Shown: positions 14,396 to 14,623 of the stretch, piece by piece
Layout: each line of letters starts with the position of its first letter
Numbering within the stretch: the first letter of the stretch is position 1
Assembly (NCBI RefSeq): GCF_003334355.1
Contig: NZ_QOWP01000037.1
Length of the DNA: 31,776 nucleotides
Direction: 5' to 3' (one strand)
Source: Escherichia coli
Lineage (GTDB): Bacteria; Pseudomonadota; Gammaproteobacteria; Enterobacterales; Enterobacteriaceae
Notes under the pieces: model-generated
The model's database searches: none
What the model saw: the letters and a program-made list of their open reading frames with translations, nothing else
Told to the model about the DNA's origin: nothing
Made by a program: the position numbers and the translations under genes

Positions 14396-14552
14396 AGCGT
14401 CCCGCTGAAATCGTCGGCTTACCTCCTTTCGCCATGCAAGCAGTCTATCGCTAACGCGTAGATAAAATAGTTTCATGTGTTATTACTGGATGCGTGCTCG
14501 CAAATGTGCCCGTCATTCAGACGATTCCAGACAGTGTTTCATAATTCCTCCA

Positions 14553-14570
14553 TTTTTCTCCCTTATTGGC
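14553..14570 (+). promoter_or_regulatory. BaeR-binding box upstream of mdtA
   Basis: tttttctcccttattggc matches the reported BaeR consensus (TTTTTCTCCATDATTGGC) at 16 of 18 positions, about 55 nt upstream of the mdtA start. Confidence 0.6.
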
Positions 14571-14623
14571 TGGCTACACTAGTATCATTCCGCGAAACGT
14601 TTCAGGAAGAGAAACTCTTAACG

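Follow-up and report, generated by a model that had tools for sequence, protein, structure and literature searches.

A three-unit Sib/Ibs repeat array beside the known BaeR-controlled mdtABCD promoter in Escherichia coli

Introduction

The Sib/Ibs genes are reportedly the repeats formerly called QUAD, and two of them, SibA and SibB, are said to lie between yegL and mdtA in Escherichia coli K-12. The described repeats are recognized by a Sib RNA of Rfam family RF00113, an antisense ibs toxin gene of 18-19 amino acids and a terminator hairpin (Han, 2010; Fozo, 2010), and the repeats considered in this study have all of these features and occupy the same intergenic region. For the ibsC and ibsD mRNAs the 5' ends have been mapped, and the T7 primers used in that work give +1 as GCAGCATGGGGCTG for ibsC and GTCAGCAGGGGGCTG for ibsD (Han, 2010). 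Seven ibs genes were reported for O157:H7 Sakai compared with five for K-12 (Fozo, 2010). In Term-seq data the dominant 3' end of every K-12 Sib RNA was found at the homologous ...CCCUUUCCUU, just before a G+C-rich hairpin (Adams, 2021). Lying before the hairpin commonly depicted as the Sib terminator, the Term-seq ends of all five K-12 Sib RNAs imply species of approximately 110 nt, as opposed to the annotated 136-141 nt.

BaeR is a member of the PhoB/OmpR-type regulator family, for which tandem repeats are the usual binding sites. In K-12 the promoter of mdtABCD-baeSR reportedly carries a BaeR site, for which a consensus is said to have been established. The form used here, TTTTTCTCCATDATTGGC, is that of Nishino (2005) as quoted in two papers. 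BaeR ChIP-exo analysis of MG1655 gave two peaks upstream of mdtA, at 2153931-2153967 (signal-to-noise ratio 11) and 2153972-2153998 (Choudhary, 2020, Data Set S2). RNA-seq of K-12 in the same work showed that mdtA expression in 5% ethanol was 16-fold lower in a baeR knockout than in the wild type (log2 -4.0), and that it was unchanged in plain LB without stress (log2 change 0.07) (Choudhary, 2020).

This study concerns a 31,776-nucleotide stretch of an E. coli chromosome (the window), and within it the interval 14396-14623 that immediately precedes mdtA. An initial annotation of this interval had described it as a long 5' region of mdtA with a BaeR-like box behind a Sib terminator, and had raised the possibilities of Sib read-through into the operon, occlusion of the BaeR site, and a spacing altered by an extra Sib copy.

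Materials and Methods

Coordinates of K-12 were converted to the window with an offset of 2139392, by which mdtA at 2154016 in K-12 corresponds to 14624 in the window. Both the ChIP-exo and the Term-seq data were obtained in K-12, another strain than that of the window. The number of Sib/Ibs units per locus was counted in 60 records, sampled systematically from the 5,423 that matched. Genome contigs were also scanned with a degenerate form of the BaeR box, TTTCTCCNTNATTGGC, of which only 14 bases are specified.

Results

The window carries yegH-asmA-dcd-udk-dgcE-alkA-yegD-yegI-pphC-yegL, then the Sib/Ibs array, followed by mdtABCD-baeSR-yegP. Comparison with the annotated complete genome of strain FHI_NMBU_03, the closest complete genome, showed that it is colinear with the window base for base from 775 to 26163. 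An extra segment of approximately 760 bp, encoding a ParD/ParE toxin-antitoxin pair with a frameshifted parD, is located between yegP and yegQ in FHI_NMBU_03 and is absent from the window at 26163-26185. The CyaR sRNA gene was recognized at 27720-27805 (RF00112, 100.7 bits), and from K-12 coordinates it would be expected downstream of yegQ. The features on which the following analysis depends are listed in Table 1.

Table 1. Features of the mdtA upstream interval and its flanks, in window coordinates.
Feature	Position	Strand	Basis
Third Sib antitoxin RNA gene (Rfam model span, promoter included)	14218..14360	+	RF00113, 140.1 bits
Third ibs toxin ORF, MMKWIIIVVLLVISFPAY, antisense to Sib3	14289..14345	-	Translation; WP_012767741.1 in colinear genome
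G+C-rich 9-bp hairpin	14364..14385	.	Folding, -17.8 kcal/mol; kept in 6/6 units compared
Second hairpin, UUUCAGCG-UCC-CGCUGAAA	14392..14410	-	Folding, z = -5.2
Tail of repeat unit 3, upstream of ibs start	14411..14504	-	Repeat family D2, tandem period 327, alignments
Homologue of weak K-12 RNA 3' end 2153897, array boundary	14505..14505	+	Adams 2021, Supplementary file 1
BaeR-bound region	14539..14575	+	Equivalent of K-12 ChIP-exo peak_5; consensus match
Upstream element, CATAATTCCTCCA	14540-14552	+	Invariant Escherichia to Klebsiella; common to spy ChIP-exo peak
Predicted -10 hexamer TATCAT of BaeR-dependent mdtA promoter	14583..14588	+	Cross-genus invariance and ChIP-exo peak_6
mdtA coding sequence, first gene of mdtABCD-baeSR	14624..15871	+	ORF, translation, colinear-genome annotation, homologues named MdtA

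Three matches to the SIB_RNA model (RF00113) were found on the plus strand, at 13556-13704, 13891-14033 and 14218-14360, all covering the full model, with scores of 140-143 bits (gathering score 56). They form a tandem repeat of head-to-tail units with a period of 327 bp. The short hydrophobic ibs ORFs are intact and lie fully antisense to them on the minus strand, at 13630-13689 (MMKHVIILVILLVISFQAY), 13962-14018 (MMKLLIIVVLLVISFPAY) and 14289-14345, and the toxins of the three units are IbsA, IbsB and an IbsB-like variant, respectively. The third Sib gene has a -35 hexamer, TTGACA, at 14218-14223 and, judged by homology to the +1 of SibC given by an SP6 primer (Han, 2010), starts at about 14248-14251. 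Its dominant 3' end is expected at 14357, the homologue of the SibB end that Term-seq placed at K-12 2153749, and the corresponding positions of the two other units are 14030 and 13701. The window differs from the known K-12 locus by one additional unit and by the IbsB-like variant toxin, a common allele rather than a new one. In Citrobacter amalonaticus (L132:1663-1776) the annotated product, with a weak Ibs_toxin match, has 37 amino acids, more than the 18-19 of its E. coli counterparts; the ORF has probably been called too long.

The G+C-rich hairpin that follows the third Sib gene belongs to both strands, being the Sib terminator hairpin on the plus strand, where it is succeeded by UUUCCCGUUUC, and a hairpin in the ibs 5' leader on the minus strand. 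In one Term-seq condition an RNA 3' end on the K-12 ibsC strand was observed just after the homologous hairpin, in the ibsC leader and 11 nt before the ORF (Adams, 2021). When the three units of the window were aligned with the K-12 ibsC, ibsD and ibsE loci, the mapped starts of ibsC and ibsD fell on the second hairpin, which would put the ibs start of unit 3 on the minus strand at about 14408-14410. With a start at about 14409, the stretch 14364-14410 would be at once the ibs 5' leader and the Sib terminator.

Upstream of this predicted ibs start the repeat continues. The sequence from 14349 to 14504 has 84% identity to the corresponding stretches of units 1 and 2 (repeat family D2), and the tail of unit 3 is closed by CTCGCAAA at 14498-14505. 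Both hairpins and the terminal motif of unit 3 are common to the K-12 ibsC, ibsD and ibsE loci, and this DNA is absent upstream of mdtA in Klebsiella. The segment 14396-14504, which had been presented as part of a long 5' region of mdtA, was thus found to be the tail of Sib/Ibs unit 3 with its divergent ibs start and upstream region. Since the homology of unit 3 extends to 14504, the unique DNA before the BaeR box is only 14505-14552 (approximately 48 bp).

It was also observed that the six Sib/Ibs units compared all carry an invariant motif, C[T/A]CGCAAA, which precedes the ibs start by approximately 95 bp and marks the repeat end. The window copies are at 14498-14505, 14169-14176 and 13842-13849, and equivalents are present in L005 and L006.

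The BaeR-like box reported at 14553-14570 is indeed present there. The sequence TTTTTCTCCCTTATTGGC on the plus strand agrees with the published consensus at 17 of 18 positions. No other match with three or fewer mismatches occurs in the 31.8-kb window, where 0.07 would be expected by chance. It lies 53 nt before the ATG of mdtA at 14624 and begins about 165-168 nt past the third Sib hairpin, in good agreement with the 55 and 160 nt first estimated. The K-12 ChIP-exo peaks map to 14539-14575 (peak_5), which contains the box, and 14580-14606 (peak_6), and between 14477 and 14640 the window and the K-12-type allele have the same sequence. The earlier claim that the box is a BaeR target, for which a failure of BaeR to bind would have been fatal, is therefore borne out by a K-12 ChIP-exo peak over the box on identical sequence.

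In a cross-genus alignment of E. coli, E. albertii, two Citrobacter species and Klebsiella, TTTCATAATTCCTCCATTTTT (14537-14557) is invariant. A second invariant block consists of CTGGCTA-ACTAGTATCATTCCG-GAAACGTTTCAGGA, with TAACAT at the -10 position in E. albertii. In Klebsiella other sequence stands in place of the 3' part of the 18-bp box (CTCCCTTATTGGC), and as this half is not conserved there, the bases that BaeR really contacts are uncertain. As a minor refinement, the best-conserved part of the BaeR-bound region is the upstream element of Table 1, located just 5' of the 18 bp marked as the box. The bound region also contains two CTCC repeats, starting at 14548 and 14558 and so 10 bp apart, and two CTCC repeats 11 bp apart are found at acrD. 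On the basis of these two pairs, 14539-14575 was taken as a tandem-repeat site, at which BaeR may bind in a two-repeat mode.

The spy promoter offers a further comparison. Its ChIP-exo peak corresponds to CATAATCTCTGCAAAATCATC, has CATAATyyCTsCA in common with 14540-14552 of the mdtA region and contains the motif of Yamamoto (2008), TCTNCANAA, as that motif is quoted in another paper. The spy peak is approximately 198 bp from the ATG, unlike that of mdtA, which indicates that BaeR does not always act from an mdtA-like position. At K-12 spy (L134:324-344, minus strand) the ChIP-exo peak is approximately 40 bp from the 18-bp Nishino box, which is nearer the gene, and the two do not overlap. The widely quoted BaeR consensus may differ from the bases that BaeR actually occupies.

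Among the matches listed for the degenerate box there were chance ones in unrelated phyla, and MdtA is not encoded at any of the six loci checked; a match in E. albertii proved to be the spy promoter. The interval 14396-14623 was also searched for a CpxR box (GTAAA-N5-GTAAA) with up to two mismatches, and none was found there. Two CpxR-box matches in Sib/Ibs units 1 and 2, a number at chance level, overlap the CTCGCAAA motif.

Downstream of the bound region, ACTAGTATCATTCCG was invariant across the compared genera, and the E. albertii variant TAACAT retains the A at position 2 and the T at position 6 of the hexamer. The BaeR-bound region ends approximately 8 bp before this predicted -10 element, and the cross-genus alignment contained no conserved -35-like hexamer at the mdtA promoter. 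The pattern of conservation points to an mdtA start at about 14595, with a leader of approximately 30 nt. No mapped mdtA transcription start was found in the literature searched, whose reach stopped short of the original promoter papers.

The promoter sequences also occur independently of the Sib/Ibs genes. Klebsiella, which has no Sib gene here and has unrelated genes upstream, still carries TTTCATAATTCCTCCATTTTT and CTGGCTAAACTAGTATCATTCCGTGAAACGTTTCAGGA, and in E. albertii and some E. coli the Sib/Ibs unit has been lost or split while the mdtA promoter has been retained. Taken together, these loci indicate that the mdtA promoter is self-contained.

Complete E. coli genomes were found to have one, two, three or four Sib/Ibs units before mdtA. 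In the 60-record sample three units were present in approximately 24 loci (about 40%), two in approximately 26, four in approximately 7 and one in 1, so the three-copy form is as common as that of K-12. Locus sizes of 646, 974 and 1302 bp correspond to steps of approximately 327 bp, which argues for gain and loss of whole units within the array. In all eight of the E. coli loci examined (one to four copies) the last ibs ATG was 279-280 bp from the mdtA ATG; its distance to the BaeR box was 207-208 bp in one-, two-, three- and four-copy loci, and the 280 bp preceding mdtA have approximately 98% identity across loci with one to four copies. Two Citrobacter species have one unit between yegD and mdtA, and in these the Sib model end is 264 nt from the ATG, as it is in the window. 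The suggestion that the extra Sib copy changes the spacing does not hold, given that the box and mdtA distances are constant in loci with one to four copies.

Several loci are interrupted by other DNA. In E. coli 124611 (L137:2584-3953; approximately equivalent to window 13700-13715) an IS150 element is inserted between the first and second units, just past the Sib 3' end, and mdtA is still 279 bp from the last ibs. In two unrelated genomes (L008:3130-3160; L130:180-260) the junction with foreign DNA coincides exactly with the 3' end of a Sib gene. In E. coli 2013C-3342 this DNA is AT-rich and carries the effector gene nleA and a transposase, and in E. albertii it carries a phage integrase fragment. 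The Sib 3'-end sequence, CCTTTCCTTATT, is found in the window at about 14023-14035 and 14350-14357. An integrating element may use the Sib 3' end, the position of the ibs ribosome-binding site on the other strand, for its attachment.

With regard to transcripts leaving the array, the Term-seq data contain a single later 3' end on the plus strand before mdtA, the homologue of which is at 14505. Its scores are 789 and 1217, compared with 487,446 and 491,701 for SibB; that is, it reaches approximately 0.2% of the SibB signal, the Sib ends being about 400-600 times more abundant. It is located 148 nt past the SibB end and 34 nt before the BaeR-bound region, and it coincides with the C[T/A]CGCAAA copy nearest mdtA. 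No conclusion was drawn from its absence in Supplementary file 3 of the same study. An intrinsic terminator at 14505 was considered and rejected, as no stable RNA structure precedes this position (folding z = +0.57).

A Rho termination region with a Rho score of 7.3 has been reported inside mdtA, at K-12 2154517 (Adams, 2021). This entry was rejected as evidence of read-through. The SibB 3' end falls within the 800 nt upstream over which the counts were taken, so the score does not locate a terminator.

Discussion

The interval between the third Sib gene and mdtA is probably a junction of two independent and already described units, the end of a Sib/Ibs repeat and the self-contained mdtABCD-baeSR promoter. 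The promoter part matches that of K-12 in its box, in the box-to-ATG distance and in the operon order mdtA-B-C-D-baeS-baeR, and no difference was observed between the two promoters; the strains differ further upstream, where K-12 has two Sib/Ibs units and the window three.

The left part, up to 14504, would be the end of a third type I toxin-antitoxin repeat, made up of the hairpin, the ibs start (about 14409, minus strand) and approximately 95 bp of conserved ibs-upstream DNA, with ibs directed away from mdtA. A unique spacer of approximately 35 bp would separate it from the mdtABCD-baeSR promoter. At this promoter phosphorylated BaeR, a regulator of the OmpR/PhoB type, would bind 14539-14575 in place of a -35 element, on a stretch that has two CTCC-containing repeats one helical turn apart together with the published 18-bp box. 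It would then recruit RNA polymerase to the -10 hexamer TATCAT (14583-14588), giving the leader of approximately 30 nt before the ATG at 14624. Such an arrangement resembles the PhoB/OmpR-type mode of activation, in which repeats overlap or replace the -35 element, in having two CTCC repeats and no conserved -35 element, with the difference that the start site and the contacts at mdtA are predicted ones. The array itself would vary by gain or loss of whole units of approximately 327 bp inside it, and the stretch from the last unit through mdtA would consequently be fixed whatever the copy number.

A different relation between the two units was proposed earlier, in which Sib transcription passes its terminator and either produces BaeR-independent mdtABCD transcripts or displaces BaeR and polymerase by promoter occlusion. 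The circumstances are in part suggestive. Sib and mdtA are co-directional, the U-tract after the Sib hairpin (UUUCCCGUUUC) is broken and a terminator scan made no call there, basal mdtA expression is independent of BaeR (Choudhary, 2020), and the strong constitutive Sib promoters before a weak inducible promoter on the same strand recall known cases of promoter occlusion by an upstream co-directional promoter. The 3' end 148 nt beyond that of SibB shows that some transcription does leave the Sib gene in K-12. This locus differs from those cases in its intervening terminator hairpin and in its 3' ends, the dominant ones lying inside the Sib gene and the further one before the BaeR site. The small share of the SibB signal in this further end and the presence of the promoter core in Klebsiella without Sib leave the proposal of read-through or occlusion with little support. 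The approximately 7-fold increase of 3' ends in distal mdtA on Rho inhibition would favour it, but the window of the Rho score takes in the SibB end itself. A full-length Sib-mdtA transcript is absent from the SMRT-Cappable-seq supplements, which is weak evidence because mdtA itself is unlisted there. Transcripts crossing the BaeR site from Sib were not seen among the K-12 Term-seq 3' ends, which are counts that do not measure flux, and steady-state counts of this kind understate read-through because the Sib RNAs are stable. Judged from these K-12 steady-state counts, strong Sib read-through into mdtA is unlikely, though a low flux would be compatible with them, and the reading as a whole is improbable; any effect of read-through would in addition be independent of copy number, because the proximal unit and the spacing are constant. 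A weaker form, in which a few transcripts of the proximal Sib gene pass the hairpin, run antisense over the ibs start and its conserved upstream DNA and end at 14505, silencing ibs by interference, or feed the basal level of mdtABCD if Rho is limiting, is very improbable.

Two other readings leave Sib transcription aside and concern the promoters themselves. The basal, or even the real, mdtA promoter might be a sigma-70-like pair, TTCAGA (14516-14521) and CATAAT (14540-14545) with an 18-bp spacer, starting at about 14552, so that the BaeR site would open a leader of approximately 72 nt. This pair is the sole site with at least 9 of 12 matches in 13400-14700, yet shuffled sequence yields as many (1.4 expected). 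CATAAT is invariant across the genera and the T.C.GA of the -35-like hexamer is kept even in Klebsiella, but CATAAT also forms the left border of the BaeR ChIP-exo peak in the mdtA and the spy promoter alike, so its conservation is explained by BaeR binding. A start at about 14552 could account for BaeR-independent basal expression; however, an activator occupying +1 to +20 would act as a repressor, and BaeR activates mdtA 16-fold. The second ChIP-exo peak (14580-14606) is better explained by polymerase at a start near 14595, and the probability of the sigma-70-like promoter is accordingly low. Coupling of the proximal ibs promoter (about 14409, minus strand) with the mdtA promoter (about 14595, plus strand), by which BaeR or mdtA transcription would alter ibs expression, for example through local supercoiling, has been considered on account of their back-to-back arrangement approximately 190 bp apart, conserved in arrangement and distance from Escherichia to Citrobacter, and of the approximately 95 bp preceding the ibs start, which are conserved and have no assigned role. 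The same conserved ibs-upstream DNA also accompanies ibsC, ibsD and ibsE, none of which is a neighbour of mdtA. Moreover, the BaeR tables contain neither ibs nor sib (Choudhary, 2020), and E. albertii and some E. coli have kept the promoter after loss or splitting of the unit, all of which makes coupling extremely improbable. The junction of two independent units stands as the preferred reading.

Conclusions

The interval is a known BaeR-controlled mdtABCD promoter beside a known Sib/Ibs array, and nothing in it is new. An extra copy leaves the surroundings of the promoter unchanged, which makes the finding an ordinary one of little biological weight, and its main value lies in annotation: the 264 bp from Sib to mdtA should not be annotated as an mdtA 5' UTR. 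Loci with one to four copies, loci split by IS elements or islands, and Klebsiella without Sib provide natural controls for Sib-mdtA coupling. Given that the number of units, from one to four, leaves the context of the mdtA promoter untouched, no change in regulation of the efflux pump would be expected from copy-number variation of the Sib/Ibs array in E. coli.
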